This document shows, piece by piece, positions 1-23,286 of a DNA stretch of 64,000 bases. Made by a program: the position numbers and the translations under genes. The stretch comes from Tortispora ganteri. Lineage: Eukaryota. The DNA lies in NCBI GenBank assembly GCA_003707115.1, contig PPNB01000002.1:310001-374000 (forward strand). The letters are read 5' to 3'. The first letter of the stretch is position 1. Each line of letters starts with the position of its first letter. Below the pieces are notes generated by a model that was not told where the DNA came from, ran no database searches, and worked only from the letters and a program-made list of their open reading frames with translations.

Positions 1-714
1 ACTCATCCTGAGTTTGAAGGACGTGCTTCTTGGGGATTCAGTGCTTATGGCACCTACACTGACGGTCATGGACACGGAACACACTGTGCTGGTATCAGTG
101 CTTCCAAGACTTACGGTGTTGCCAAGAAAGCCAATATTGTTGCGGTTAAAGTATTGAGCGACAACGGCTACGGATCTACTTCAGCCATTTTACAGGGATA
201 CGAGTGGGTGTACAAGAACTCTGACCACACCAAGTCTGTCATCAACAACTCTCTTGGATCACCTAGTCATGACGGTGCTTTGAAACAAGCTCAATTGGCT
301 CTTGGACGTGCTGGAATCATTTTTGCTGGAGCTGCTGGCAACGATGACGCTGACTCATGTGATGGAAATCCAGGTGAGAGTACTGCAGAGACTATTATCG
401 TCGGCAATCACGATGTTAACTATGCTAAAGCCCCAAGCTCCAGCTGGGGTTCCTGCGTTGACATCTGGGCGCCCGGAACTAATATCTTGTCTACTATTCC
501 CGGCGGCAGGACTACCCGCATGACTGGAACTTCTATGGCTGCTCCTCATGTAGCTGGTGTAGCAGCTCTTTTCTTGGGACAGGGAGTGCCGGCTAAGGAT
601 GTCTGGAACAAAATGCAAGCTCTTTCCATTAAGGACAAGATCACTGGACTGGAATCTTATGATCACAACAGAATGTTGTACAATGGTGCCGGCTGGTCCG
701 TTCTTGACTACTGA
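1..714 (+). CDS. Subtilisin-like serine protease, S8A proteinase K family (5'-truncated by window edge)
   Basis: Frame 1 is open from base 1: THPEFEGRASWG...DGHGHGTHCAG (catalytic His), AAGN (oxyanion Asn), MTGTSMAAPHVAG (catalytic Ser); stop TGA at 712-714. Confidence 0.95.
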   Translation, partial: THPEFEGRASWGFSAYGTYTDGHGHGTHCAGISASKTYGVAKKANIVAVKVLSDNGYGSTSAILQGYEWVYKNSDHTKSVINNSLGSPSHDGALKQAQLALGRAGIIFAGAAGNDDADSCDGNPGESTAETIIVGNHDVNYAKAPSSSWGSCVDIWAPGTNILSTIPGGRTTRMTGTSMAAPHVAGVAALFLGQGVPAKDVWNKMQALSIKDKITGLESYDHNRMLYNGAGWSVLDY

Positions 715-904
715 GTATTTAAGGCAACAAGTATTGTATACATGAGAAATATATACATTTTAGTAAAGCTTGTAGCATGCATTTTCAGCTGGCTTCTTTA
801 GTAATGATTTAAGGTCATAGTAGTGACTGGTTGCTAGGGAAAAGTACTCAACAGAACCAGAAATTCAAACCCACCAAAGCTCTACCAACTACACTTATAG
901 CATA

Positions 905-2407
905 ATGGTCTTAGCCGATCTGGGCAATCGCTTAACTGATGCGATATCTAATTTATCAAAGACCAATGTAGTCGATCAGGAATTTGTTGAAAGTATACTG
1001 AAGGAGGTATGCAACGCCTTGTTGGCGTCAGATGTCAATGTACAACTCGTTGTAGGATTACGAAAGAACATCAGGACGAAAATCAATCTGGCAGAAATAC
1101 CACAGCATTCACGAAAGAGAGCCGTACACAAGGCCATTTTTGATGAATTAGTGGCTTTAGTTGACTGCAAATCCGAGCCGTTTCAGCCAAAGAAAGGCAA
1201 ATCTAACGTCATCATGATGGTCGGTTTGCAGGGAAGCGGTAAAACTACAACTTGTACGAAACTCGCAGTATGGTATCATAGACGCGGGTTCAAAACTGGA
1301 TTGGTTTGTGCAGATACTTTTCGTGCAGGTGCATTTGACCAGTTAAAACAGAATGCGAGTAAGGCTCAAATACCTTACTACGGTTCCTACACAGAAACGG
1401 ATCCAGTAGTTGTCGCGAAGGAAGGAGTTCAACGCTTGAAGAAGGCTGGATTTGACATTATCATTGTAGATACAAGTGGTAGACACCAGCAGGAACGTGA
1501 ATTGTTTACAGAGATGCAACAAATATCTGCTGCTGTCAAGCCTCATCAAACCATAATGATTCTTGATGCTTCAATTGGTCAGGCTGCGGAAAGCCAGTCC
1601 AAGGCTTTTAAAGAGTCTAGCGATTTCGGTGCAATTATTATTACAAAAATGGATGGACACGCTAAGGGCGGTGGTGCAATATCAGCTGTAGCTGCTACTA
1701 ACACCCCTATTGCCTTTATTGGTACGGGTGAGCACAACTACGATCTAGAAAAGTTCGCTCCTAAATCGTTCATACAGAAACTACTAGGTATGGGCGACAT
1801 GGAAGGTTTATTTGACCAGATCCAGACCTTTAATATTGATCAGAAGGAGACAATGAAACACATTCAAAAAGGTATTTTTACTCTGAGAGATCTGCGTGAT
1901 AATATGACTAACATAATGAAGATGGGACCCTTATCTAAAGTAGCTGGAATGATTCCGGGAATGGGCCAATTGGCTAACCAGCTGGGCAGTGATGGAGATA
2001 CGGACTATCGTATGAAACGTGTTCTTTATATTTTTGATTCTATGACAGAAGCTGAACTGGATTCTGACGGTAAAATTCTGGCTAATGAGCCATCACGGAT
2101 CATGCGAATTGCTAAAGGTTCAGGAACATCAGTCAAGGATGTGTACGACCTGCTTGAACAACAGAAGATTATGGCTAATATGGCTAAGAAGATGGGTGGT
2201 AAGAATGGTATGTTGAACAGAATGCAACAAGCTAAAGCCGCTGGCGGTGCAGGTGGGCCGGGAGGCCTTGGAGGTAATCCTATGGCTGCTGCCCAAGCGA
2301 TGGCTCGTAATAACCCCGAAATTGCTAGAGCTATACAGCAAATGCAAAATAATGGAGGAATGCCTGATATGCAATCCCTTATGAAGATGATGGGAGGCAA
2401 ATTTTAG
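905..2407 (+). CDS. SRP54: Signal recognition particle 54 kDa subunit
   Basis: MVLADLG N-terminus, [27 protein letters not shown] GTPase motifs and a Met-rich M domain. Confidence 0.98.
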
Positions 2408-2697: not shown

Positions 2698-4273
2698 CTA
2701 GTGGTATAGCCGCTTATCCAGCTCACGAAGTGCATCAGCAACAGATGAAACACCGACGGTCATTCCCTGCCGTTGCAGCTTGCTAACTATTTTACTTAGA
2801 TCAGCACCTGGAAAGTTTTTGTGTCGCGATAGTGTCTGATAAGCAGTAGCACAAGGAATAAAACCGGGAGTTGTTTTCGTTTCCCTGGACTTGCCTCCTC
2901 CACAGCAACCTCCTGCACCTGCTGGACCTTTGCAGGAAGAGACAGTAGTATTTCGGCTATCCTTGTCGGCTGCACTAGTAGACTCATCGCCGTCGATCAT
3001 GATATCTGGGTGAACATTTGGTTGTAATGCAAGAGCCGTACAAAACAATGTAGACATCGGGTCGTTCTTGCATTGTAAACAGGAGCCTGGTGTGCATAAA
3101 TCTTCGATGGCCGGTGGGTCGTTTATAACGGCCCCGGAAGGCAATCCTGATAACACCGAGGATATGTCGCGAGAGGGACCCGGATGAAGAGTTGGAAGTT
3201 TTCCGGTGACCGAAGGAATGGCGGAGACAAGGGGAGGAAGAGTTATTTGTTCGTCATCCATAATAGAAGACCGGTGAGAGATGCTGCCTGATTCTTTGGC
3301 AGCAGCGTCGGCACATAAGCAAGGAGTGCCATTTGAACAAAATCCGCAAGGGTCTATAGGTTTTGGTTGTTGTGCTGGGGTAAATGCAGAAGTGAAATCA
3401 GTCTCAAAGTCGTTAGAGTAGTCCAGTTTCTGCGTGTCTTTTGTACGCTTTAATTTGAATAAGGGAGAACCCGGGCGATCCGCGGACCTTTTAAGCGGTA
3501 TAACGGCGACATCCTGCATGTCTCTGAAATCAGGCATCAAAGTGGCTGTGATATCCCCATTACCGGAAGACTTTATTCCGAGCGTGCTACAAACACAGCC
3601 GTTGTCGCTGTCGCACAATCCACAGTCATCGCTATCGACGAGGACCGGGTGGTGGAACTCAGGAGACTCGGAATGTGGACCGGGGGAAGAGCCTGGAGAG
3701 GAAATAAGCTGACCTTGTAGACTGGGTGCAGAACCAAAAGATGATCCTGGAGATGTGCTTAGTATAGGCATGCTGTGGTAATCTTGTGCGCCATTGAGAT
3801 TTGTTTCGGTAGCTTTCTCAGAGGTCGTGCCAGCAGGGCCTCGTTTAGTCGACCGGGAATCTTTGGAAATCTTCTGCGATGATTTCTTATTTGCTACAGG
3901 TCTGGAATATGAGGACGGAGTGGTTGAATTCGATTTATCGGAGTCTCTTTTTGGAGGCTTCGACTTAACGGTTTTCTTCTTAGCGCTGCCAGCAGTGGGC
4001 TTACGACCAGGCTATGCATGAGGGTTGGTTAGTAACACGTATTGTATAGGGAGCAGCGAATAGAACAAAAATACGTACCTTTGGCCTTGGAGGCAAGACC
4101 CAATTCTTTGAAGTGACAATTTGGGGGGCGTTTGCGGGCCCAGTCTCTTTAACTCTCGGGGCCATAGCCATGGCTATTGCCAAAGGAGCCTCTAAATGTG
4201 CACGGTTAGCATGGAAAAACAAGTTATACTGGAAATTACATTAAGATCACGATTACTTACCTTGTGGTGACAT
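2698..4273 (-). CDS. HapX/Hap43-like iron-responsive CCAAT-complex cofactor, 3 exons (4273-4261, 4191-4079, 4011-2698), about 479 aa, no recognisable bZIP
   Basis: Intron 1 4260-4192 (GTAAGT..TGCTAAC..TAG) and intron 2 4078-4012 (GTACGT..TACTAAC..TAG). Splicing gives MSPQEAPLAI...TSKNWVLPPRPK|PGRKP (Hap4L motif) in frame with ORF 2698..3771, which carries CGLC..CVC, CGFCSNGTPCLC, PGSCLQC..STLFC, GGCCGG and IPCATAYQTLSRH. Confidence 0.9.
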
Positions 4274-4752
4274 CCTGATAGTGTATCGATTCCACAAAAT
4301 GAAGAGAAGAAACAAAAAGCTAGAGGTAAAAAGCGGTGTAACGGAGTCAAAATATGTTGTCGCGGTTCTGGCCTTTTCAGAATCTCGGGGGTATAAGTAC
4401 TAAATAGCGGTGGGAGCAAAAAGCTAGTGCGTGTATACCTGCCAAGTCGGGAACTGCCGGAAACTTAGATTGTTTAATCGTTTACCATTTCTGCATAAAC
4501 CCCCTATTTGTTCGCTGGTTCATTTATAATATATGACTATACCTTTAATATTTTATTTTAATATTTAAAAAAAGAAAGATATATCTCTCTATATGGTTGC
4601 TATATTACCAATCATTCTGACTACTGAGTGCCGTCACCCACTCGGTTTCATGGAATTATTTTAAGATTCATACAAAGTAATCAATAAAACTCTATTACCA
4701 CACATTTCCCCCATTTTTCCCTTTTTTACGCCGCACTTTCTTTCATATTCGA

Positions 4753-5498
4753 TTATCTGATTTAGAACTGATCTTTGGATTTTTTTTTGAATAGTCCGCA
4801 CAAAATTTTAAATACATTATAAGTTATTTTATGTAGCTCTTCTGGACTATGTGAGGCAAATTAGAGATCAGTTTCCCCTTCAGTGGCCGCTCCTTCGGTC
4901 GTTTCTGCCGTTTTCCAAATAGTATCTTATAAACTTAATCAGTGAATTAAAGTGTTCATAATTGATCTTACCCAATCAGAGTACACAATCTTTGCTTCAT
5001 TGCTGATTGCGCCCCAGGAACTTGCAGAATCTGAGGTCAAGTTAAAGAGCATTTCCAGAGCAAAAAGACCGATGTTTGGGTGCATTCTGTACCTTTAATG
5101 GTGATTAAATGTTATCACGGCAATTAGGCGCTTTTATTTCAGTATCAAAAGTCATGCGCTGGGGCGGTAGTATAATGAAATGTGAACCCTACCCACCGGA
5201 TAAAGTTATCAGATGAAGCAGCGATTGTTATGTCTGATTGGTCGATTAAAGCCGTTTTCGGCGAGCTATCCATCCAATAATGCCACTTAGAGGCATCTCC
5301 GATATATCCATACTTATTTCATGGCTGAGTCATATTTAATACTGGCTAGATCGTCAGACCAACCACAGATCAGTATATTCAATTATCTGAACTATGCTGG
5401 GTTTTGATTGTGTGTAGGTAGGAGGACTGGTTTGCAGCTAAAACATATCCGAATAATACTGTCGGATTAATCATCACGCAACCGATACACGCTGATAA
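4753..5498. promoter_or_regulatory. GATA elements of the SreA/Sfu1/Fep1 type (ATCWGATAA), with CCAAT boxes, in the divergent HapX-like/FMO promoter
   Basis: TTATCTGAT 4753-4761 and TTATCAGAT 5206-5214 (both ATCWGATAA on the minus strand); TTATCTGAA 5383-5391; CTGATAA 5492-5498; CCAAT at 4972, 5274 and ATTGG at 5237 (also CCAAT at 4608); TGAGTCA 5326-5332. Confidence 0.6.
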
Positions 5499-5568
5499 AT
5501 AGCCGCCGCATCCCAATGTAAACTCTTAACTTTTACCATTATTTTTTTTTTATAGAAGAGATATATAA

Positions 5569-6939
5569 ATGAAACGGGTAGGGATAATTGGAGGAGGTCC
5601 TTCAGGGATAATTGCAATTAGATGCTTTCTTTCGTTGAAATTCGATGTCGTTGTATTTGAGCGGCGTCGGACTACTGGTGGGTTGTGGAACTATACTGCT
5701 GAGTCATGCGAAATCCCTTGCCCAAACACTGATCCATGGTATTCCTTGCCAGCAACCGCTTCTGGAAACTGGGACAGCGCTATGTACGATTCTCTTGATA
5801 CTAATATCCCTAAACAGCTCATGAGCGTTACTGATTTCCCATTCGACGATAGGTTGCCGTTATTCCCAAATAGGCAGGATGTACTAGAGTATATGAATGC
5901 CTTTGCGAAACCATATTTAAAGTATATTCGTTTCAATACGTTTGTGAAGTCTGTTGATAAACCAAAAGACAAATGGGTAGTGATTAGCAATGATCTCGAT
6001 TCCGGTAAGCAATCCAAAAGCGAATTTGATTATATTGTTGTAGCAACAGGCAATTATGACATGCCGTACATTCCTGAATTCGAAGGTTTAAAGGAATGGA
6101 ACGAAAAATATCCTGGATCGCTGTTGCATTCAAGAGCCTATAGATCACCAAAAACGTTTCATGGCAAGACTATAGTTGTTGGTAATGCGGCATCAGGATT
6201 GGATATATCGTACCAGATATCCGACTATGCAGACTTACCGGTGATTAGATCAATTCGTTCTGAATCGCGTCTTCCTGGTCCTGAATTTTCTCTGACACCT
6301 GAAGAACGTGCAGCTAGAATCCGAGATGTTGGAGTTATTAAGCGATTTGACTATACTAATCGGTCTGTAGTCCTTGAGGACGGTGAAGTTATCGAAAATG
6401 TACAATTCGTGGTTTTTGCAACTGGTTATCTTAAGAATATACCTTTCTTACAAAACTACCATCGCACTCATCCTCTTATTTCAGCTAATGGAGCCCATTA
6501 TACAAATATATACAAACAGTTGCTTAATGTGGACGACCCTTCTTTAGCATTTCTGGCAGCACAACGCTTTATTCTGCCTACTAAAATTGCAGAGGTAGAA
6601 TCGGCTTGGCTTGCACGTGTGTGGAACGGCAATATCACTTTACCACCCCGAGATGTAATGGAAAAGGACTACATTGATAGACTAGAGGCTAAAGGAGACG
6701 GCAAAGAATTTCACGATCTAAATAAATTCGAAGACGTCCAATATTATCGTGACCTTCAGTCTGATTGTGTAACCACTGAGGGATTTCAACCCGCACCATT
6801 CACAGATGAAGATGCAACTCTTAGAGTTAATGTGAAAATGGTAAAAACCGCATACTTCGATAGATATAGAGAGGAGGGAGTCAAGTCTACTTCTTTAGAA
6901 GAACTTATGCAAGCTGGATACCTGAAAGACTATAAGTGA
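5569..6939 (+). CDS. FMO1: Flavin-containing monooxygenase (yeast Fmo1-like)
   Basis: GGGPSG FAD motif, GGLW, VATG, YPGSLLHSRAYR FMO fingerprint, VVGNAASGLDI NADPH motif. Confidence 0.88.
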   Translation: MKRVGIIGGGPSGIIAIRCFLSLKFDVVVFERRRTTGGLWNYTAESCEIPCPNTDPWYSLPATASGNWDSAMYDSLDTNIPKQLMSVTDFPFDDRLPLFPNRQDVLEYMNAFAKPYLKYIRFNTFVKSVDKPKDKWVVISNDLDSGKQSKSEFDYIVVATGNYDMPYIPEFEGLKEWNEKYPGSLLHSRAYRSPKTFHGKTIVVGNAASGLDISYQISDYADLPVIRSIRSESRLPGPEFSLTPEERAARIRDVGVIKRFDYTNRSVVLEDGEVIENVQFVVFATGYLKNIPFLQNYHRTHPLISANGAHYTNIYKQLLNVDDPSLAFLAAQRFILPTKIAEVESAWLARVWNGNITLPPRDVMEKDYIDRLEAKGDGKEFHDLNKFEDVQYYRDLQSDCVTTEGFQPAPFTDEDATLRVNVKMVKTAYFDRYREEGVKSTSLEELMQAGYLKDYK

Positions 6940-7166
6940 ACTATCTTTATAACGAACGCAAGTATACCGTGTGTTTGAATTCTTCAGAAGACAAATATTA
7001 AACTTTTTAAAACCCTACAAGTATATTTATTTATCATATTTGCTAAATAATTTGAACAATCTATGTGTATGTACCAATTATTCGCTTCCAAGGAGCGCAA
7101 CTTACGAAACTCTAAATTTTATTCACATTTGCAACTTCACCTTTTCTTCGATTCTAGTACTCAACT

Positions 7167-8036
7167 ATGCTGAGGATCAACCATTTTTCACGGACAACAT
7201 CATTAGTTAATGGCATAATTATTATTTCAAGAGGTGCTAAGAAATCTAGTGGCCCTTCGGCAATGCAACTGGCACAACAGCGCGGTCGAGCACAGAATCG
7301 CGACCAACTTGCGAAGAAAGCAAAGAAGAAACAGTCTATGCTACGTGCCTCGGCATACCGTGGAAATTACACTGCTCTGCCGAAGATCGAATTACCAATG
7401 GCTTATAGACTAATACGAGCCGCAGAAGTAGGTCAGCCGGTCACTTCTACTACACTATCTATAGGGTTCCGACTTGTCTTCGATCGAGGTACTCCCCCCG
7501 TTACTGGACGAGTCAGATTACCCTATAATCTCGGGTCTGAAGACAAGTTAGTTGTTTTTACTACTGATGCTTCTGTTGCTGAGAGAGCTTTAAAAGCTGG
7601 TGCTGTCCTTGCGGGCGCAGAAGAGGTCATAGAGAAGGTTGTTGGATCCCCGGACAACTTCACAGCTGCATTAGCGACCCCGGAGATCGTTTCAGGCCTC
7701 GGAAAAGCAGCAAGAACGCTTGGCCCAAGAGGATTGATGCCAACAACGCGTAGAGGAACGGTTGTTCAGCCGCTAGAACTTGAGAATGCTATTGCCGAAA
7801 GAATAGGCGCGCGAGAATTCCGCTCGCACGATGTTATGCTTACGATCCCTTTCGGTAGAGCTCATTTTAGCGATATTCAACTTACTGAAAATCTACGAGC
7901 GGTTCATGAAGCAGTAATGGACAAGATCAAAGACTTAAATCAAAATAGTAAACGTCGGCCAATGCTTGTTGCAGAAAAATACATTGCATCAACGCATTCC
8001 CCGGGAATAGTGCTCGACAACAAATTAGTCTTATAA
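7167..8036 (+). CDS. MRPL1: Mitochondrial ribosomal protein uL1m
   Basis: Basic N-terminal presequence; AYRLIRAAEVGQP, GRVRLP and ARTLGPRGLMPTTRRGTV L1 motifs. Confidence 0.92.
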   Translation: MLRINHFSRTTSLVNGIIIISRGAKKSSGPSAMQLAQQRGRAQNRDQLAKKAKKKQSMLRASAYRGNYTALPKIELPMAYRLIRAAEVGQPVTSTTLSIGFRLVFDRGTPPVTGRVRLPYNLGSEDKLVVFTTDASVAERALKAGAVLAGAEEVIEKVVGSPDNFTAALATPEIVSGLGKAARTLGPRGLMPTTRRGTVVQPLELENAIAERIGAREFRSHDVMLTIPFGRAHFSDIQLTENLRAVHEAVMDKIKDLNQNSKRRPMLVAEKYIASTHSPGIVLDNKLVL

Positions 8037-8044
8037 TGTACATA
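8037..8044 (+). promoter_or_regulatory. Puf3-type 3'UTR element (UGUANAUA)
   Basis: TGTACATA immediately after the MRPL1 stop codon; Puf3 targets mitoribosomal mRNAs in budding yeasts. Confidence 0.5.
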
Positions 8045-8206
8045 GCTCACACTTAACTCCGCACAAATTGTGCACAAAAATATGAACTTTGAAGACATAG
8101 AATTTAGAAGAGAAAGGATCATATCCAAACATTTAATTAAGTATTCCACAGACTCAACGCTCTCTGATTTTCTCCCTACATAGTAGCAATTCTCGCCAAT
8201 TTAGCT

Positions 8207-9895
8207 TCAATCACCCGTTCGCTCATCTTCAATAGCTAGGTCTTGGAATATTGATTCACTGGGAACTCTCTTCATTATTTCAGGAGGCGCAAAAGCAGGA
8301 CCAATCTTCTTGATCCATCTTTTTCGTTTCTCAAGTAAAGCGCGACTGCTCTCTGTAGACGATGACTGCTGGATAACATTAGGTAAATTGCTTCCTTTCT
8401 TTCTCTTTTTTATGCCTTTTAAGCGCTTTATAAACGCCTGATCAACCTGCTTGTCAAGGTCATCAAGAATAGAAAGGTATTCTTGATACGCCATATGTTC
8501 CTCTACAAGTGGCATGAGTCTTTTCTTCCGAGCATTGTTCGCAGCAGTATGTATCCGCAACGACTCTTGTAATTGTTTCATCTCGGTACATATTTCATCA
8601 TCCTCCCTATTTGCAAAATGCATTCCATCATTACTGTCATTAAGCAAACCAATGTATCGTAGTTCTCGTCTGAGCCTCTCTTCCAACGAACTATAATCAG
8701 CACGCACATATGCAACACGCCAACCTTGCTGTTCTGGTAAGGACGATGATGACTGTGTCATGAAAGGAGGCGCAGACGCTGCAAATTCGAATGCCGACTG
8801 CGGTTCATTTCCAGATGTATTTTCCTCATTATTTACACTCTCATTAACAGTGTTAGGTGCTGGTGTATGCGGCGGAGTGCCAATAATCATATCGTCAGCC
8901 TCGTCTCTCATTATGATAGAAAGAAGACGAGTATGCAATGGCCCTACAGACACCTCGTTTGTTTCAAGAGTCTCGTCAGTTATAGCTTCAGATGAGCCCT
9001 TCGCTTGATCGTCATTCTGTGATTGCCCTAGCGAATTCGTTAAACCTGCATTAGCGTCTTCTTGAGCCCAGACATCAGCGTAATAGGGCCCCAACGTGGG
9101 GATAATAAATGGAGATGCCTGTGGACCAACACCAGTTCCTAAACTCTTATCTATATATGAAACTTCATCTGAATTCAAAAAAGTAAGATCTTCCTCCGTA
9201 AAAGGTCTGAAGTATGGTTCTACAAAGCTCTGAAATGTAGAAAACTGGACCTGGTTGCTGGGCTTGCCGCCAGTGAAGTCTTCATCAGGGATTTCACCAG
9301 GTAACATATCTTTTAAATCGGTTGTAGGAAAGCGCGCAACAGCATGGAGCTTTTGCCTTTCTTCGAACGATAGCCCAGACACATCAGGCGCCTGATCGCT
9401 ATAGTCGTAGAGTTCGCGTACCGCCGTTTGTTCAATTTTGGGCGATTCATGCTCCCCTTCTTCATCAATCAGGCGTGTAGAATTTGATGAAAATGAGGAA
9501 GATATAATATTCGGAGGCGGTGAATGTGAAGACGTAGGTGGAGCTTTACCTGCTGGTACTGGTCCGCTTGTATTCTGTTCGGATTCGGTTTTCACTTTGA
9601 CGGTATCTGGTTCTGCGATGTCTGACGATGTAGCGAACATTCCATCATCAGCGGAAACGGGAGACTCAGCAGTGCTAACGTCTACTTGCGATTTTACCAC
9701 ATCTGGTGTTTCTTCTCTAGAAAGGCGAGCTAGTAAAGATTTAAGATCGGCTTTTATATCTTCGAATGCAGTGAGAGGAACAGTGGTAACTCCATCGGTG
9801 CCGGGGCTGAGAAGCGGCAGGTGGGTTTGAGTGATCCGTGCAAGCATGGAATCTAAAGGCCTTTTGGCCCGTCTGCCTCGCCTCCCTTTAGGCAT
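8207..9895 (-). CDS. NGG1: SAGA/ADA HAT module subunit Ada3
   Basis: KPSNQVQFSTF..VEPYFRPFTEEDL, LEERLRRELRYIG, REDDEICTEMKQLQ, MAYQEYLSILDDLDKQV. Confidence 0.92.
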   Translation of the reverse strand: MPKGRRGRRAKRPLDSMLARITQTHLPLLSPGTDGVTTVPLTAFEDIKADLKSLLARLSREETPDVVKSQVDVSTAESPVSADDGMFATSSDIAEPDTVKVKTESEQNTSGPVPAGKAPPTSSHSPPPNIISSSFSSNSTRLIDEEGEHESPKIEQTAVRELYDYSDQAPDVSGLSFEERQKLHAVARFPTTDLKDMLPGEIPDEDFTGGKPSNQVQFSTFQSFVEPYFRPFTEEDLTFLNSDEVSYIDKSLGTGVGPQASPFIIPTLGPYYADVWAQEDANAGLTNSLGQSQNDDQAKGSSEAITDETLETNEVSVGPLHTRLLSIIMRDEADDMIIGTPPHTPAPNTVNESVNNEENTSGNEPQSAFEFAASAPPFMTQSSSSLPEQQGWRVAYVRADYSSLEERLRRELRYIGLLNDSNDGMHFANREDDEICTEMKQLQESLRIHTAANNARKKRLMPLVEEHMAYQEYLSILDDLDKQVDQAFIKRLKGIKKRKKGSNLPNVIQQSSSTESSRALLEKRKRWIKKIGPAFAPPEIMKRVPSESIFQDLAIEDERTGD

Positions 9896-10405
9896 GATGC
9901 TAAAAAGGAAATAATAATCTATGAGATCTAGCGATCAGAGGTGTATAGGCTATTTGGGTTGTCAAGGAAAATATGTGGTATAGGTAGGGTAACCTACAGA
10001 GAACGAGATAAAAAATTGTCATTTAACCAAGTACATATCCCGGCCACCCCCCTTTTCCTTTACCTCTCTTTACGGACTGTCGTACAGGGCTAATTATTTA
10101 CATAGATCAGTCAGGTAACGCGTGCAACGATTAGCTACAGTACCAAATTTATTTGTCATTTGGTTTAGTAATTCATTAGTATTAAATTGTACTATATTGA
10201 GCGCACTGAAGTATTAAAGCTCGTTGAAACGCTGCTCTTCTGTCAAAGGATCAAGTTACAAAGGTCACCCAGCTGACTTTTACCCACACACCCGTTGCAC
10301 ATAGAGAGCGACTCCACAGAAACACCTGTCAAATCTCCCAGGTCGCGTTGATTTCGATAAGCTGAACTTTATTTCTCGCCAATAAAGGGAATTATTTTAT
10401 TCATT

Positions 10406-11785
10406 ATGACAACTCTTGATGAGATTAAAAAGTCGATTGACGAGGTAAGTAATGATTTGAAATTTGTGTTCGCTGCATAACGCGTAATAGCAATAGCGTC
10501 AGGCGTAACGCGTAACAGAACGCGTGGTAGTTTTAAACGCGCAAATCGATACTGACCAGTATTTCCTTAGTTACAAGACCGCCTAACAGCTTTCGAGAAG
10601 ACTTACAGCCCTGTAAACCTATTTTCTAAGGCAGGATTGAAAGCTATCGGTGAGCAGTTGATTTCTATTGCTAACGATTCAACTTCATCATCTCAAGAAT
10701 CTGCAACAGCCTCAACTTCCTCCGTATCCGCTACACCCGTAAAGGCGATCGCTAAACCGCGCATTAGAAAGAAACCAGAACCAAAAGAAACAGCAGCACC
10801 GATCGCCTCGGCAAACTCTGAAACTCAAACAGCTCCTACCGCTTCGAAAGAACCTACAGCATCTGATACGCAGGGCAAAGATACTACAGCGGTACCTACT
10901 TCCACAGTCTCCAAGAAAGCTGCTAAACCAACAATCGATGAGCCTGTTACAAACGGAAAGCCTATAACTGAGAAGCCTGCTGCTACGAAGGAACCTGCTT
11001 CTAGCAAAGAGCCTAAAGGAGCAGCTCCTGCTGCTGCCAAAGAGCCTAAAGCGAAGGTTTCGAAGGTAACCAAGGAGCCGAAGGAGCCCAAAGCCGCAAA
11101 AACTGTTAAACAAGCTTCTACCACAGCTTCTGATGCTGCTGCTACTGAAGAGTCATCTTCAGCTCCAGTAGTGGAACCTCCAACTGCGGACACTACTGTA
11201 GCCGAAACAACCATCGAACCTACAGATAGCAGCATTGACACCAGTGCTTCAACTGCAAAGGCTAAAAAAGTCAAGAAACCACGCGATCCAAATGAACCGA
11301 AGCGACCATTGAATCGGTACATGCTATTTTGGAAGTTTGCAAGACCGATTATTATTGAAGAACGCGAGGCAAAAGGACTTCCGGCATTGTCTTCCAATGA
11401 AATTGTTCAAGCAGTTAAAGAGAGATATTCGAGTATGTCTGAAGCTGAAAACAAAGAATGGGATGCAGAATACGGTCGACTCAAGAAGGCCTACGATGCC
11501 GAAATGGCAGCGTACCGTCGTTCAAAGGCAGAAGAAGCATCAGTTCCTCCTGTTGAGCCTAGTGCTGCTTCTACAAATGACGAGCCTGCTTCTGCAAATG
11601 ACGAGCCTATTTCTTCTACTCCTGTGGAAAAGCCTGCCGAATCCGAGAAGGCGTTAAAGCCTGAAGAAGATCCGGAAGTGATTGAGCGCAAGAGAAAACA
11701 GAATCAAATGCGCCGTGAGAAACGACGCAAGAAAAAGGAAGAGATGTTGGCCGCACAGTCAGCAGTATCGGAACAAACTGCATGA
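10406..11785 (+). CDS. HMO1: HMG-box chromatin protein, Hmo1-like; 2 exons (10406-10444, 10571-11785)
   Basis: Exon 1 MTTLDEIKKSIDE; intron 10445-10570 (GTAAGT..TACTGAC..TAG) joins in frame to ORF 10637..11785. HMG box RDPNEPKRPL...AKGLPALSSNEI carries the Hmo1-type insertion; basic C-terminal tail. Confidence 0.82.
10480..10542. promoter_or_regulatory. Cluster of MluI cell-cycle boxes (MCB) inside the HMO1 intron
   Basis: ACGCGT at 10480, 10508 and 10520; ACGCGC at 10537; a further ACGCGT upstream at 10118. Confidence 0.6.
11567..11608 (+). repeat. 21-bp coding tandem repeat x2 (ASTNDEP/ASANDEP)
   Basis: GCTTCTACAAATGACGAGCCT followed by GCTTCTGCAAATGACGAGCCT. Confidence 0.9.
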
Positions 11786-17843: not shown

Positions 17844-18000
17844 ATATCTGCTGATCTAATGGAATTTCTAAAGGTGAAAGTCCTAAGAAGCAGTGTTAAA
17901 TTATATTGCCTGAAATATCACAATTTAAAAATTAATTTATTAATATGTAAAAATAGATGTGTAATTATAAAGCACTTGTTCCTGAATTACTTGGTTGAAT

Positions 18001-18074
18001 GGGCGTATAGTGTAGTTGGTTATCGCGCTCCCTTCGCATGGGAGAGGTCCCCAGTTCGAATCCGGGTTCGTCCA
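18001..18074 (+). tRNA. tRNA-Ala, anticodon CGC (18035-18037), intronless
   Basis: Acceptor GGGCGTA/TTCGTCC with G3:U70; anticodon stem CTCCC/GGGAG, loop TTCGCAT; T loop TTCGAAT; discriminator A. Confidence 0.93.
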
Positions 18075-18079
18075 CGTAC

Positions 18080-18087
18080 TTTTTTTT
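18080..18087 (+). terminator. RNA polymerase III T-tract terminator
   Basis: T8 starting 6 nt after the tRNA discriminator base. Confidence 0.85.
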
Positions 18088-18197
18088 GGTCTTCGCACAA
18101 TTATATTTAGTTGTTGTTGGATTAAAAAATATAACAATAACTTTTATTTTGATTCTAAATTATTATATTAGTATACTTTAACTGGTTTACATAGCAG

Positions 18198-19028
18198 TTA
18201 CTTGCCAAAAGCGATGTTGGAAGGAGCAGGAGGTGTAGGATCAAGAGAAGTGACATATGATTTAGTCATACCTCCATCAACTACGAAGTCCTGGCCTATA
18301 ATAAAGGAAGCATCATCAGATGCTAAGAATACAACAGCTTTAGCTTGTTCAATTGCCTCACCAAAGCGACCTGTAGGGAAATGAACAGTTCGACGTACAG
18401 TTTTCTCTGGGGTATCTAAGAAATCTTGGAGCAACGGAGTATTCAAAGGAGCAGGGCAAAGTGAATTGATGCGGATGCCGCTCTTAGCATACTGAATAGC
18501 CAGCTCGCGAGTCATTGCCATTACAGCTCCCTTTGACGCGGTGTAGGCAATCTGAGGAGTAGCAGAACCGACAATAGCAACTACTGATGCAGTGTTGATA
18601 ATGGCCGCGTTTGTCTTTTTATTTGCAAGCATGGACTTGATTGCATATTTTGATCCATAAGCTACACCGCGGACATTGATAGCAAAAGTCAAATCCCAAA
18701 TACGTTCAGGAGTGTTCAGGATGCCATCATCTTCTGGATGCATAATACCAGCATTATTAAACATTACATCAACACCGCCGTATTTCTCCAAAGAAGCAAC
18801 AAGTTCTTCAACTTCAGCTTCCTTAGATACATCACAGACCTTGCCTTCAATGCGTACACCATCAGCAGCATGCTCCTTTACAATGGTGACGGCTTTCTCG
18901 AGAGCACTGGCGTTAACATCAGTCATGAGAACATTGGCGCCTTCAATTGCAAACTGAATAGACGTCTCAAGACCGACTCCACCGGCAGCTCCTGTAATGA
19001 TCGTATTCTTTCCTTCAAGTCTTCCCAT
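18198..19028 (-). CDS. Classical short-chain dehydrogenase/reductase, NAD-type
   Basis: TGAAGGVG, acidic TD after beta-2, NNAG, catalytic S..YTASK, C-terminal FVVDGGMTKSYVT. Confidence 0.92.
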   Translation of the reverse strand: MGRLEGKNTIITGAAGGVGLETSIQFAIEGANVLMTDVNASALEKAVTIVKEHAADGVRIEGKVCDVSKEAEVEELVASLEKYGGVDVMFNNAGIMHPEDDGILNTPERIWDLTFAINVRGVAYGSKYAIKSMLANKKTNAAIINTASVVAIVGSATPQIAYTASKGAVMAMTRELAIQYAKSGIRINSLCPAPLNTPLLQDFLDTPEKTVRRTVHFPTGRFGEAIEQAKAVVFLASDDASFIIGQDFVVDGGMTKSYVTSLDPTPPAPSNIAFGK

Positions 19029-19593
19029 TTTTTCGAGCAGCTTTTATCTTATGAATAAACAGGGAAGTTGTAGTTGCAAGGTTTCGAAGCGGATATATAT
19101 ATGGCTTGATAAACTTACATAATTTAAGGTTTTCATAATTGTTTTGAGTTTCTACAATAGTTCGTTTTGGCGAATGCATTACTTAGCACACAATACTGAA
19201 CAGAAGAATGTGAATACATATTGTGTTTTATAATATCCATAAAATAAGAACACACTTTATATTAGTTAATGGGTCCTCTAGATTATGGGTTGCCTTATGT
19301 AAGACAGCTTTTCTTTAGTATAGTGAACTATCGCCTAGCGCGGAAGAAAGCTTAATTGCGTAATGTAATCTATCCGATGCTTAAGAGCTAGAAACGCGAG
19401 TGCCCTTTTTACAGCTCAATTCATCGAAATTGGCGCTATTATTTGTTAAATGTCAAAATAAATAGACTTACGAACCGTTTGAAGTAGTAACTTGTAACAT
19501 AATTCTGGAAAGAATAAATGGTTAAGGTTGGTTCAGTTTTTCCCTACTTTCTAACTTAGACTTCGACTACCACACCAAATCCAAAAAGATATC

Positions 19594-20973
19594 ATGAAAG
19601 ATTGGGCTGTAATTCTTGCTGATGACGATTGTGTCAAACTTTCAGGAATTGATGTCGATGGAATTCTTAGAGGTAAACTTATCTCAAAGAAAAAGTTCCT
19701 TTCTATTGCCGAAACCGGTTTTGGATTCTGCTCTGTTATTTTTGGTTGGGATATGCATGATCGTACCTACAATAGATCTACAAATATAACTGATGAAACT
19801 GGCGGGTTCGGCGATTTACATGCTGTAATTGATCTTGAAAGCTTCACAAGAATTCCCTGGGAAAATAATGTTCCATTTTTCTTCGTGTACTTCTACAATT
19901 CTGACGAAACTGTTGTAGCTCCCTGCCCGCGATCACTTCTCAGAGATGTATCCAAATCGGCCGCCGAACTGGGATATACTCCTATGGCAGGATCAGAACT
20001 CGAATTCTATCACTATAAAGAAACTGGAGCTTCAGTAATTGAGAAAAATGGAAAGAATCTTACTCCTATGACTACTGGTATGTTTGGTTACTCTATACAA
20101 CGTCCTGTCCTTAACAAGGAATATTACTACGATGTATGGAAATCAGCGAATGCCATGGACGTGAATATTGAAGGTTGGCACTGCGAATCTGGCCCTGGTG
20201 TTTATGAGGCTGCTATAACGTATGCAGAAGCTCTCAAAGTCGCAGACCGAACTTCCCTCTTCAAGCTTACATGCAAATCAGTCGGCCCTCAATATGGTAT
20301 AATGCCTTGCTTTATGGCTAAACCACACCATGGTCTTCCAGGGAACTCAGGACATCTTCACCTTTCTCTTTTAGATAGCACTGGTAAAAATATTCTCTGC
20401 AGAGATGAACCTGACCCGAATGCTGAATATCCAGATACAACTTACCTCACCGAAGAAGGCAAGCATTTCCTTGCCGGTATACTAGCAGGACTGAAAGATA
20501 TCATGCCAATTCTTGCGCCTAATATCAATTCTTATAAACGTTTAATCGAAAATTATTGGGCTCCTGTGACAATCTCCTGGGGTTATGAACACAGAATTGC
20601 TTCAGTTCGTTTCATCAGTCCTCCCTCGTGTCCCCCTAAAGGAACGCGCTTTGAAGTTCGTACACCAGGCGCTGACGTGAACACACATTTTGCACTCGCT
20701 GCTTTATTTGCCCTTGGAATCAGAGGTATTAAGCTCAAACTACCTTTAACCGTTCCTCCAATGGGCGCAATTGTCGACCAGTCTACTATCGACAGACTAC
20801 CCAAATCTCTCAGAACCGCTACAGAAACTTTTATGAGCCCAACCAGCTTAGCTCGCGAGGTTCTAGGCGATGAATTTGTCGATCACTTCGGTAAAACAAG
20901 GCTTGAAGAATGTGATCTATGGGATGACGCCGTCACGGACTGGGAGGTCACTAGATACATTGAGACAGCTTAA
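19594..20973 (+). CDS. Type I glutamine-synthetase-like gamma-glutamyl-amine ligase (GlnA4/PuuA-like; not Gln1)
   Basis: DVDGILRGK, GSELEF, HCESGPGVYE, FMAKP..PGNSGHLHLSL, APNINSYKRL, RFEVRTPGAD, DWEVTRY; 459 aa GSI architecture, unlike the shorter eukaryotic GSII. Confidence 0.88.
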   Translation: MKDWAVILADDDCVKLSGIDVDGILRGKLISKKKFLSIAETGFGFCSVIFGWDMHDRTYNRSTNITDETGGFGDLHAVIDLESFTRIPWENNVPFFFVYFYNSDETVVAPCPRSLLRDVSKSAAELGYTPMAGSELEFYHYKETGASVIEKNGKNLTPMTTGMFGYSIQRPVLNKEYYYDVWKSANAMDVNIEGWHCESGPGVYEAAITYAEALKVADRTSLFKLTCKSVGPQYGIMPCFMAKPHHGLPGNSGHLHLSLLDSTGKNILCRDEPDPNAEYPDTTYLTEEGKHFLAGILAGLKDIMPILAPNINSYKRLIENYWAPVTISWGYEHRIASVRFISPPSCPPKGTRFEVRTPGADVNTHFALAALFALGIRGIKLKLPLTVPPMGAIVDQSTIDRLPKSLRTATETFMSPTSLAREVLGDEFVDHFGKTRLEECDLWDDAVTDWEVTRYIETA

Positions 20974-21126: not shown

Positions 21127-23286
21127 CTAGTTCTCGTCCATGGTAACATCGCCGTCAGCATCAACGTCCCCTTCGGTCTTCTCCTTACCGTCTTTAGCTT
21201 TCGAAGACTCCTTGGAGTTAGCAGCGGCAGCGGCGGCAGCGGCAGCGGCGGCGGCAGCGGCAGCTTCTTCTTCAGCTCTTCGTTTCGCTTCAGCAGCTTC
21301 ACGGACCTTGCGTTCTTCTTCTTCCTTGGCACGTCTTTCCGCTTCCTGTTTCTCCAAGTAACGTCCCTTAATAATATTTCCAACAGACAAAAGTTCCTCG
21401 TGCTTAGCAACGTATTGTGCCTTGCTAGCATCTTCACCTTCGTCATAAAGCCATTCCTCAGCAGCATTAAGCATTTCGTGCATTTTAGACTTCTCTTCAT
21501 CAGAAGCAAACTCAGAATACAAGTCATCAAGCTTGCCTCTCATATCATAAATGTACTCTTCTAATGCATTCTTGCGATTTTCAGTGTCTGCAACGTGTTT
21601 ATCTTCCATGGCCATTTGGTTTTCTAGCTCAATGTACTTCTCCTTTACTGAAGACTCCAGAGCAGTGGTACCATGAATAATGGTGAGCTCAGCCTTTTTG
21701 ACAATTTTCTTGACTTTCTTAACTTTTCCAGTTTCACCGTCTTTGGCCTTTTCTTTATCGTTCTCTTCAGTTGATTGTTCAACAGGTTCTTCGACAATTT
21801 GTTCTTCAGCAATATAAGCATTCTCAACGGTGTAAATGCCGGAATAATCAGCACGGAAGCGAAGTTTAACCATTGCAGGTTCGTCCCCATCCGCTTTTAC
21901 TCCTTTTATAGTCCATTGACCAATCCAAGGCAAAACCCCGCCTGGGAGCTCAGAGGTGTATTTAGCCTGAACGATAAAGTCCTCTTTTCTGTACAAAGTA
22001 ACAATCTTAGTGCTGGGGAGAACATTACCAACTGGGAATACTTGTAATTCACTTTCATCTTCACCCTCAACAGGATCCCAAAAGTAGTCGACTGAATATT
22101 GCGTAATATCCTCATACTTGAAAGGACGAACGCGCATGGTGGGGGAGTGCATAGCACAAACGAATGCACATCCACGGGCAATGGCTTCATCTTGATTCAG
22201 AGTGAAGGACAGTGGCTTCTTGAAAAACTCACTTAGTTTTTCCTTCACAGCAGGGATGCGAGAGGTACCACCGACTACCTCGACGGTAGTTATATCATCT
22301 AACGAGATGTTGGCTTGGTCCAAAGCAGCTTTGATGGTGGGTTCCATGCGAGCAATTAAAGGGGCAATTAGTTCCTCGTACTCCTCACGCTTCAACATTC
22401 CATTAACGTCCTTGTCGTCCATAACTGATTCTATGTTGATGGGGGCCTGAGCGTTGGCTGACAAGACTTTCTTGAGGCGCTCAACAGCAGTGAGGACACG
22501 AGAGAAGGCTTTAGGATTAGTAAGAATATCGATTTTAAACTTCTCTTTGAATTCTTGCGCAAAGTGGTTAACGAGTGCGTAGTCGATTTCCCGTCCGCCA
22601 AATTTGCGATCAGATGCTGAACCGATGATCTTGAGTTCACCTTTCTGGACACTAGCGATTGAAACAGAAAAGCTAGAGTGACCTACATCCACAAATGCAA
22701 CTTTCTTAGGCTCCTCACTCAAATCGGTTTTAAAAACACCGTAAGAAACGGCAGCAGCAGTGACCTCGTTAATGATACGAACAGGATTTAAGCCAGCGAT
22801 GTGGGCAGCGTCGACAAGAGCGCGACGCTGAGCGTCAGTGTACCAAAGAGGCACAGAGATGACCACATCAGTAGCAGTCGATTTGGTATCTTCCTGTACA
22901 GTATGCTTAATTTTGGTCAAATACATTGCAACCAGCTGAGTAGCGGTGAAAACTTGTTCCTTTCCTTGGTATCGAACTTTGACGCCTACACCACCACCAG
23001 GGACTTCAACAAGAGGAGCACCAATGAAGCGCGATTCGTCCTGAACTTCAGGATCATTGTACTGGCGGCCCAACAAGCGCTTCAGAGAACCTACAGTGTT
23101 CTTAAGGTTAGAGATTTCTTGAGTCTTAGCAGATTCACCTAGAGCTCGGGCCTTGGGTCCAAAGCCCACGAGAGAAGGAGTAGATCGGTTAGAGACTTCG
23201 TTGACGATGACGTCTATTCCCCTATTACGAGCAATAGCAATGACTGAGGAAGCATTTCCAAGATCCAATCCAATAGAACCACTCAT
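21127..23286 (-). CDS. SSE1: Hsp110 chaperone / Hsp70 nucleotide exchange factor
   Basis: GLDLGN..IARNRGIDVIVNEVSNRSTPSLVGF, TLNQDEAIARG, KNALEEYIY, EEWLYDEGED. Confidence 0.96.
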   Translation of the reverse strand: MSGSIGLDLGNASSVIAIARNRGIDVIVNEVSNRSTPSLVGFGPKARALGESAKTQEISNLKNTVGSLKRLLGRQYNDPEVQDESRFIGAPLVEVPGGGVGVKVRYQGKEQVFTATQLVAMYLTKIKHTVQEDTKSTATDVVISVPLWYTDAQRRALVDAAHIAGLNPVRIINEVTAAAVSYGVFKTDLSEEPKKVAFVDVGHSSFSVSIASVQKGELKIIGSASDRKFGGREIDYALVNHFAQEFKEKFKIDILTNPKAFSRVLTAVERLKKVLSANAQAPINIESVMDDKDVNGMLKREEYEELIAPLIARMEPTIKAALDQANISLDDITTVEVVGGTSRIPAVKEKLSEFFKKPLSFTLNQDEAIARGCAFVCAMHSPTMRVRPFKYEDITQYSVDYFWDPVEGEDESELQVFPVGNVLPSTKIVTLYRKEDFIVQAKYTSELPGGVLPWIGQWTIKGVKADGDEPAMVKLRFRADYSGIYTVENAYIAEEQIVEEPVEQSTEENDKEKAKDGETGKVKKVKKIVKKAELTIIHGTTALESSVKEKYIELENQMAMEDKHVADTENRKNALEEYIYDMRGKLDDLYSEFASDEEKSKMHEMLNAAEEWLYDEGEDASKAQYVAKHEELLSVGNIIKGRYLEKQEAERRAKEEEERKVREAAEAKRRAEEEAAAAAAAAAAAAAAANSKESSKAKDGKEKTEGDVDADGDVTMDEN
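21220..21264 (-). repeat. (GCY)15 coding trinucleotide repeat; poly-Ala15 in the Sse1 C-terminus
   Basis: 15 consecutive GCC/GCT codons on the minus strand. Confidence 0.95.

Follow-up and report, generated by a model that had tools for sequence, protein, structure and literature searches.

A bacterial pathway that proceeds through gamma-glutamylethanolamide is already in print (PMC6529630, PMC10132767). The closest known system is the SCO1610-SCO1615 cluster of Streptomyces coelicolor, whose GlnA4 was shown to be a gamma-glutamylethanolamide synthetase (Krysenko et al., PMC6529630). The same cluster encodes a short-chain dehydrogenase/reductase (SDR), SCO1611, proposed to oxidise the product of GlnA4, together with the aldehyde dehydrogenase (ALDH) SCO1612 and the hydrolase SCO1615 (PMC6529630). 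An ethanolamine cluster is also reported from Phaeobacter (MED193_10026-10056; PMC10132767), and a predicted gamma-glutamyl ethanolamine pathway of Chromohalobacter is cited in PMC6529630. In the Puu pathway of Escherichia coli (PuuA, PuuB, PuuC and PuuD), gamma-glutamylation likewise shields the amine, and oxidation takes place at the opposite end of the molecule. Ethanolamine is released in bulk from phosphatidylethanolamine, and the route by which fungi break it down is not settled. Here, we describe two divergent genes from the yeast Tortispora ganteri (assembly GCA_003707115.1, contig PPNB01000002.1, positions 310,001 to 374,000; this whole 64-kb stretch is called the window), one for an SDR and one for a ligase that resembles type I glutamine synthetase (GS; type I, GSI). 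The pair probably starts an undescribed fungal route for ethanolamine-like amines. We favour, with moderate confidence, the reading that its products would be the first two enzymes of gamma-glutamyl amino-alcohol breakdown; the amino alcohol would most likely be ethanolamine, and for ethanolamine specifically our confidence is somewhat lower.

The SDR gene (18198..19028, minus strand) and the ligase gene (19594..20973, plus strand) are transcribed in opposite directions from a 565-bp intergenic spacer (19029..19593). Each is an ATG-to-stop open reading frame (ORF), of 276 amino acids (aa) with a Pfam adh_short_C2 match and of 459 aa with a Gln-synt_C match, respectively. The best public homologues of both come from Tortispora caseinolytica: CANCADRAFT_101384 for the SDR (97% identity, 276 aa) and CANCADRAFT_101386 for the ligase (94% identity, 459 aa). 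Given that the ORFs are unbroken and that these homologues are equal in length at 100% query coverage, both genes are complete and without introns. The likeness to the S. coelicolor cluster lies in the pairing of a GS-like ligase with an SDR close to the PRK06057 model and in the same proposed steps, namely ligation, alcohol oxidation, aldehyde oxidation and hydrolysis. In contrast, the fungal genes are divergent rather than co-directional, and their locus lacks the ALDH, hydrolase, regulator and permease. When bacterial queries for the ethanolamine permease, iron-containing alcohol dehydrogenase (Fe-ADH), peptidase C26 hydrolase and ALDH were run against the 64-kb window by tblastn, no match was returned at E<=1e-8, which agrees with the remark of the first-pass annotation that ALDH and hydrolase are absent from the window.

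The ligase matches Gln-synt_C over residues 111-455 (1.6e-74), and neither Gln-synt_N nor an amidohydrolase domain is matched by Pfam anywhere in its 459 aa. It falls under all NCBIfam cut-offs, scoring 191.5 against 429.15 for the GlnA equivalog TIGR00653, 186 against 470 for the type III model, 80.7 against 845 for PRK09469 and 166 bits against 650 for gamma-glutamylputrescine synthetase (NF045547). Its active site was read from an alignment with E. coli GlnA and PuuA (K-12 record). All six metal ligands are kept (E135, E137, E198, E205, H254 and E354), as are G250, H256, R316, R334, R339 and R356, which align with E. coli GlnA positions that we take to bind ATP and glutamate; these metal, ATP and glutamate residues are retained in 13/13 fungal or other eukaryotic rows. 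We also take the ammonium and flap site of GS from Salmonella and E. coli to consist of Y179, E327 in the flap, N264, and D50 and S53 of the neighbouring subunit, and the alignment confirms that E. coli has these letters there. Y179, E327 and N264 are replaced by F164, W322 and P249, respectively. The same F, W and P occupy the three positions in all 13 eukaryotic rows and in most of the 17 nearest bacterial relatives (F in 15, W in 17, P in 16), while R61 and N64 stand opposite D50 and S53 in an N-terminal part where the alignment is weak.

Public records name hundreds of fungal homologues of the ligase 'glutamine synthetase'. A second true GS, that is, a glutamate-ammonia ligase, would fit this name, the Gln-synt_C domain and the full set of catalytic metal, ATP and glutamate residues. 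However, the ammonium-site replacements throughout the eukaryotic rows make this function unlikely, and the missing Gln-synt_N match, the low score against the GlnA equivalog and the distance from E. coli GlnA in the tree described below all speak against it; we rejected this assignment and regard it as very improbable. The active site contradicts the label carried by the fungal homologues, and our finding would correct a widespread annotation. It also suits the earlier expectation that the enzyme would not prefer ammonium. We consider the protein a candidate ATP-dependent glutamate-ethanolamine (or amino alcohol) ligase.

PuuA resembles the window ligase in being a GS-like ligase without the ammonium-site residues. 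It was nevertheless rejected as an orthologue, given the score of 166 against 650 for NF045547 and its position on a separate long branch; moreover, the flavoprotein PuuB oxidises an amine, whereas an alcohol would be oxidised by a dehydrogenase in the fungal proposal. The best structural match of the ligase is 11zs_A, and no PDB code given in the excerpt of a paper on the GS of M. tuberculosis is found among its PDB matches.

Aspergillus FluG is another fungal protein with a GSI-like domain and, like the ligase, is not credited with GS activity, none having been demonstrated according to PMC6478659. FluG is a fusion of an amidohydrolase and a GSI-like domain, unlike the window ligase. Among 19 longer relatives, the amidohydrolase family PF04909 was found once, in the FluG-type protein P0409, which is 25% identical to the ligase (E 5.8e-10). 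With no amidohydrolase_2 domain in the ligase and P0409 remote from it in the tree, FluG orthology was rejected as well. A related proposal follows what was suggested for the C-terminal domain of FluG: the product of the pair would be a gamma-glutamyl compound with a role as signal or secondary metabolite, and nutrient breakdown would not be the purpose. Eukaryotic GSI-like proteins have indeed been proposed to make signalling metabolites (PMC9909507; for FluG, PMC6478659). Furthermore, deletion of Magnaporthe MoGLN3, which encodes a single-domain, cytoplasmic GS-like protein of unconfirmed orthology to the ligase, caused no growth or virulence defect on standard media (PMC8229676). However, the lone FluG-type protein sits on a long branch distant from the fungal clade, the window ligase has no amidohydrolase domain, and the close bacterial contexts are catabolic operons with permease, ALDH and hydrolase. 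We therefore hold a signalling role to be quite unlikely.

The search for longer, possibly fused relatives, most of which proved to be gene models merged with unrelated neighbours, also brought up members of the ligase family in Mortierellomycota, a chytrid, Tulasnella and the amoebozoan Planoprotostelium, at 43-49% identity. The route may accordingly extend beyond Ascomycota, with the ligase present in Mortierellomycota, chytrids and an amoebozoan. Three further proteins, P0242 (4424 aa), P0287 (2757 aa) and P0292 (1356 aa), each contain between 3 and 6 distinct regions with about 29% identity to the GS-like ligase; these are either unusual architectures with multiple GS domains or assembly artefacts.

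Metagenome contigs were searched with an alignment of 21 fungal ligases, which yielded 596 matched stretches, 593 of them confirmed. The window SDR and ligase were mapped by tblastn onto the best 80 of the 596, which comprise 7 eukaryote-like and 73 bacterial loci. By identity, the bacterial loci separate into set A (50 loci, 36.5-44%) and set B (23 loci, 31-35%). The usual gene order in set A is permease, ligase, Fe-ADH, peptidase C26 and ALDH (for example in L022, L027 and L040). The Fe-ADH lies downstream of the ligase in 25 of the 36 loci with at least 1.3 kb of flank; a permease is upstream in 16/33, an ALDH is present in 16/26 and a C26 hydrolase in 13/26. Of 118 ORFs extracted from 13 loci, 68, belonging to 10 of these loci, were run through Pfam, which confirmed these neighbour families. 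An alcohol dehydrogenase followed by an ALDH and a gamma-glutamyl hydrolase is the enzyme set needed to break down a gamma-glutamylated amino alcohol, and with 430 bits the L022 permease passes the cut-off of 381.75 set for TIGR00908, the 'ethanolamine permease' equivalog of NCBIfam. As described, the Phaeobacter cluster introduced above is comparable in logic to this operon. In set B, an SDR that is 39-48% identical to the fungal SDR follows the ligase in 14 of the 18 loci with enough flank. One bacterial locus, L007, joins a set A ligase to an SDR and an ALDH. As a separate observation, an ORF of L019 (8468-10546, plus strand, 692 aa) carries peptidase C26 and ALDH domains together; either the final two enzymes of the pathway are fused here, or the simple ORF call missed a stop or frameshift.

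In a maximum-likelihood tree of 50 rows, the 12 fungal rows (support 100) and set A form one clade (SH-aLRT 99), set B, which is of the GlnA4 type, forms another (SH-aLRT 97), and PuuA, GlnA and the FluG-like domain occupy long outer branches. Forcing the fungi together with set B costs 39.0 log-likelihood units (p-AU 0.010), a test of a group that was named post hoc with the tree already seen. The nearest relatives of the fungal ligase thus belong to the operons of permease, ligase, Fe-ADH, C26 and ALDH, at 40-43% identity and with the F/P/W ammonium site in common; these operons differ from the fungal locus in encoding the whole pathway and in having an Fe-ADH where the fungi have an SDR as the alcohol-oxidising partner. 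The comparison with GlnA4 in the first-pass annotation thus needs correction: the ligase belongs to a GS-like clade linked to an ethanolamine permease, a sister of the GlnA4 clade, whose bacterial members have an Fe-ADH partner. GlnA4 orthology was rejected on the identity of 26-34% to GlnA4-type ligases, the sister-clade position and the AU p value.

The second gene leads to bacteria by another path. The SDR matches adh_short_C2 in Pfam (7.9e-57), and its best NCBIfam model is PRK06057, at 280.2 bits, 77 above the next model (203). Its best PDB match is 4wec_A (3.1e-66, 227 bits), followed by one at 1.8e-42 and 149 bits. The alignment of fungal and bacterial SDRs shows no variation at the catalytic residues N118, S148, Y162 and K166, or at D37, which follows the glycine-rich motif at the end of the first beta-strand. 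In classical SDRs, an aspartate at this place favours NAD over NADP, which suggests that the enzyme prefers NAD. The fungal SDRs also carry a tail of about 15-20 residues beyond the ...YVT motif, where the bacterial proteins stop (18198-18260 in the window); it contains a recurring AP.N motif and has no ending that resembles a type 1 peroxisomal targeting signal (PTS1).

A scan of one genome per bacterial species with the SDR alignment gave at least 600 matched stretches, of which 598 were confirmed; the best 80, at 46-55% identity, were kept. Within 8 kb of the SDR, a GS-like gene is found in 60 of these 80 loci (46/54 with full flanks and 14/26 with short flanks). An ALDH is present in 57/80, a C26 hydrolase in 23/80 and a permease in 11/80, and the hosts belong to Actinomycetota, Chloroflexota, Acidobacteriota, Bacteroidota, Planctomycetota and others. 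A Streptomyces locus, L158, has the order C26, ethanolamine permease (418.6 bits), ligase, ALDH and SDR (507 bits against PRK06057), a layout that matches SCO1610-1615 (PMC6529630). An SDR tree of 84 rows, in which even-numbered loci from L102-L160 were omitted as thinning, nests the 12 fungal SDRs (support 100) inside the bacterial GS-linked clade that includes the SDR of L158, with support of 95 for their union with a bacterial sister group of 35 rows. FabG separates at 99, as do five of six unlinked SDRs; the exception is L112 (end branch 4.07), which groups with the linked clade. The first-pass annotation had quoted several SDR motifs and matched them to a subfamily that bacteria encode in operons with GS-like ligases; the motifs are indeed present, are common to the bacterial SDRs that adjoin GS-like genes, and agree with the position in the tree and with PRK06057 as best model, whose cut-off the Streptomyces cluster SDR passes. 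We regard the SDR as a candidate NAD-dependent gamma-glutamyl-amino-alcohol dehydrogenase.

The pair is not peculiar to T. ganteri. Seven of the ligase loci from metagenomes were judged eukaryote-like because short gaps split their ligase match, and six of them (L001-L005 and L048) have the divergent arrangement of the window. In these six, the SDR lies immediately upstream of the ligase on the opposite strand, with segments 47-81% identical to the window SDR (the SDR of L003 is truncated by the contig end), and the ligases are 44-58% identical per segment to the window ligase. Protein searches further placed a ligase and an SDR of the same species on one contig in 12 named ascomycetes: Tortispora, Nadsonia, Trichomonascus, Pleurostoma, Echria, Bombardia, Westerdykella, Massariosphaeria, Lentithecium, Cercophora, Neurospora intermedia and Daldinia. 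One more contig, of 4,359 bases, carries both genes, and the two have adjacent locus tags in Tortispora caseinolytica and Cercophora sp. The contigs given for the two Yarrowia proteins are of unequal length, which carries no weight because several strains are pooled in these clusters. Given the shared contigs, the adjacent tags and the divergent loci, the pair is conserved from early-branching yeasts to Pezizomycotina, and the divergent SDR/ligase pair is a conserved feature of Ascomycota. The adjacency that had been predicted for other fungi is therefore seen. The notion of an amine-catabolic module in a yeast, which we support, was in contrast too narrow in its host, as the pair is not specific to yeasts.

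The bacterial clade closest to the ligase and, independently, the one that contains the SDR point to the same pathway. In its first step, the ligase would use ATP to couple the amine to the gamma-carboxyl group of glutamate, giving gamma-glutamylethanolamide, as homology and the active site suggest. The NAD-preferring SDR would then oxidise the free hydroxyl to an aldehyde, a step to which homology and gene linkage point. By analogy with the bacterial operons, an aldehyde dehydrogenase encoded outside the window would produce gamma-glutamylglycine, and a gamma-glutamyl hydrolase, also encoded elsewhere, would release glycine and glutamate. With the head-to-head layout, a single control region could drive both genes.

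Several observations weigh against this reading. The bacterial partner of the set A ligases is the Fe-ADH, an SDR being downstream in only 2 of 36 loci, and the ligases that adjoin the closest bacterial SDRs share just 26-34% identity with that of the fungi, so that the two lines stem from different operon types; the fungal module looks like a mosaic of a ligase from the lineage of Fe-ADH-type operons and an SDR from that of GlnA4-type operons. The SDR's score of 280.2 lies under the PRK06057 cut-off of 404, as does that of a GS-linked SDR from Dyadobacter (308.8). The rate of 60/80 for GS linkage is not unbiased, since the patterns of the scan were drawn from this same SDR family and only the best 80 of at least 600 stretches were kept. 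Both trees are quick searches, and the outgroup branches of the ligase tree are long. Identity between the fungal ligase and the bacterial ones linked to an ethanolamine permease reaches only 40-43%, and the set A clade is not uniform in function, because L008, L016 and L037 have other neighbours, namely a second GS, a HAD hydrolase and an unknown protein. At L014, the remaining eukaryote-like locus, the 2,079 upstream bases show a catalase fragment but no SDR. Permease, ALDH and C26 hydrolase were found neither in the window nor in the fungal loci L004, L005 and L048. Finally, no 7-mer or 8-mer is common to seven fungal spacers above shuffled controls, and GATA sites are not enriched in the spacer of the window.

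Some of these points would suit the same chemistry acting on another substrate, such as 1-amino-2-propanol, 3-aminopropanol or another alkanolamine, a polyamine-derived alcohol or a different amine. A secondary alcohol would yield a ketone in the SDR step and require no aldehyde dehydrogenase, and the fungal cluster, in the window and in three long fungal loci, consists of ligase and SDR only, with no ALDH, hydrolase or permease found. The modest identity to the permease-linked enzymes and the different neighbours in part of the ligase's bacterial clade can be read in the same way, and GS-like enzymes in print take several amines (PMC13740247; PA5508 in PMC6478659). However, an ethanolamine permease at equivalog level occurs in both independent bacterial contexts, and so does an ALDH (57/80 of the SDR-anchored and 16/26 of the ligase-anchored loci), which points to a primary alcohol and to ethanolamine. 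We judge another substrate unlikely, although it is the strongest of the rivals that we considered.

It could also be argued that the adjacency has no functional meaning, two unrelated genes happening to share a spacer, and that the substrate of the SDR is a different alcohol or ketone. The SDR family is large and its substrates are hard to predict, and both the score under the PRK06057 cut-off and the lack of a common promoter motif found among the fungal spacers would agree with such a view. Nevertheless, the divergent pair recurs in 6/7 eukaryote-like loci whose ligases are just 44-58% identical, and the bacterial SDR clade is independently linked to GS-like genes, in 60/80 loci from many phyla. 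We hold a chance adjacency to be a shade less probable even than a signalling role. Gamma-glutamyl breakdown of an amino alcohol thus remains the reading that we prefer.

In a full-text literature search, no account of a gamma-glutamyl route in any fungus was found; the first-pass annotation had named no biochemical description in yeasts. As for fungal ethanolamine use, a Neurospora model paper has ethanolamine kinase only, the main text of an Aspergillus niger model paper does not treat the subject, a Biolog paper on Pseudogymnoascus has O-phosphoryl-ethanolamine only, and the review PMC9397018 contains nothing on fungi. The fungal pair would be a eukaryotic member of a kind of pathway known from bacteria, so that what is new is its occurrence in fungi. 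If true, this would be the first eukaryotic case in which amines are broken down by the bacterial 'gamma-glutamyl protecting group' strategy; the pair bears on whether eukaryotes employ that strategy at all, and the conserved two-gene module offers a direct handle for assigning a function to a widespread pair. More tentatively, and with less confidence than we have in the chemistry, we propose that fungi from early-branching yeasts to filamentous ascomycetes might carry out a cytosolic, B12-independent gamma-glutamyl catabolism of ethanolamine, with the pair kept throughout Ascomycota.

The spacer is presumably a shared promoter region, co-regulation being suggested by the gene arrangement. 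Its G+C content is 33%. No GATAAG is present in its 565 bp; the whole window has 26 such sites against 39.6 expected, the nearest being at 19678 within the ligase ORF. Two HGATAR-like sites were noticed in the spacer by eye, which by our own estimate is about the level of chance.

Other neighbours were noted at some of the homologous loci. The eukaryote-like L004 has a malate synthase gene (8934-10589, plus strand) downstream of the ligase, at a distance of about 1.3 kb, and, past the SDR and some 3 kb from it, a fragment of a flavin amine oxidase gene (462-1472, plus strand). In Penicillium the ligase and malate synthase genes are probably neighbours too, since the gene model P0391 (1040 aa) joins the ligase to malate synthase domains. 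A link of the pair to glyoxylate metabolism is speculative. A SET-domain gene adjoins the SDR in both L002 (2-1750, minus strand) and L005 (2426-3637, plus strand), which suggests a broader synteny within one fungal lineage. In the bacterial loci L008, L016 and L037, the region of interest spans about 3900-9700 in each, and the genes that come after the GS-like one encode an unknown protein of about 345 aa and a HAD hydrolase. Upstream, L008 and L037 carry a second GS that is shorter and has the N as well as the C domain; a gamma-glutamyl cyclotransferase is additionally present in L008.

In the window itself, the flanking genes are of the housekeeping kind, encoding a class II tRNA synthetase, Maf, LSM, a G-patch protein, an Sse-type HSP70 and TRM13. 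ARAGORN places a tRNA-Ala(CGC) at 18001-18075 (plus strand), 122 bp past the stop codon of the SDR gene. The intronless, head-to-head pair with its 565-bp spacer among housekeeping genes and next to a tRNA, as first annotated, is thus borne out by the ORFs, Pfam, ARAGORN and the homologue lengths. An 83-aa ORF that overlaps the tRNA (17859-18110) and a 106-aa antisense ORF within the SDR gene (18738-19058) are almost certainly spurious. The Sse-type HSP70 gene (21127-23286, minus strand) encodes a run of 14 alanines in the charged C-terminal tail of its product.

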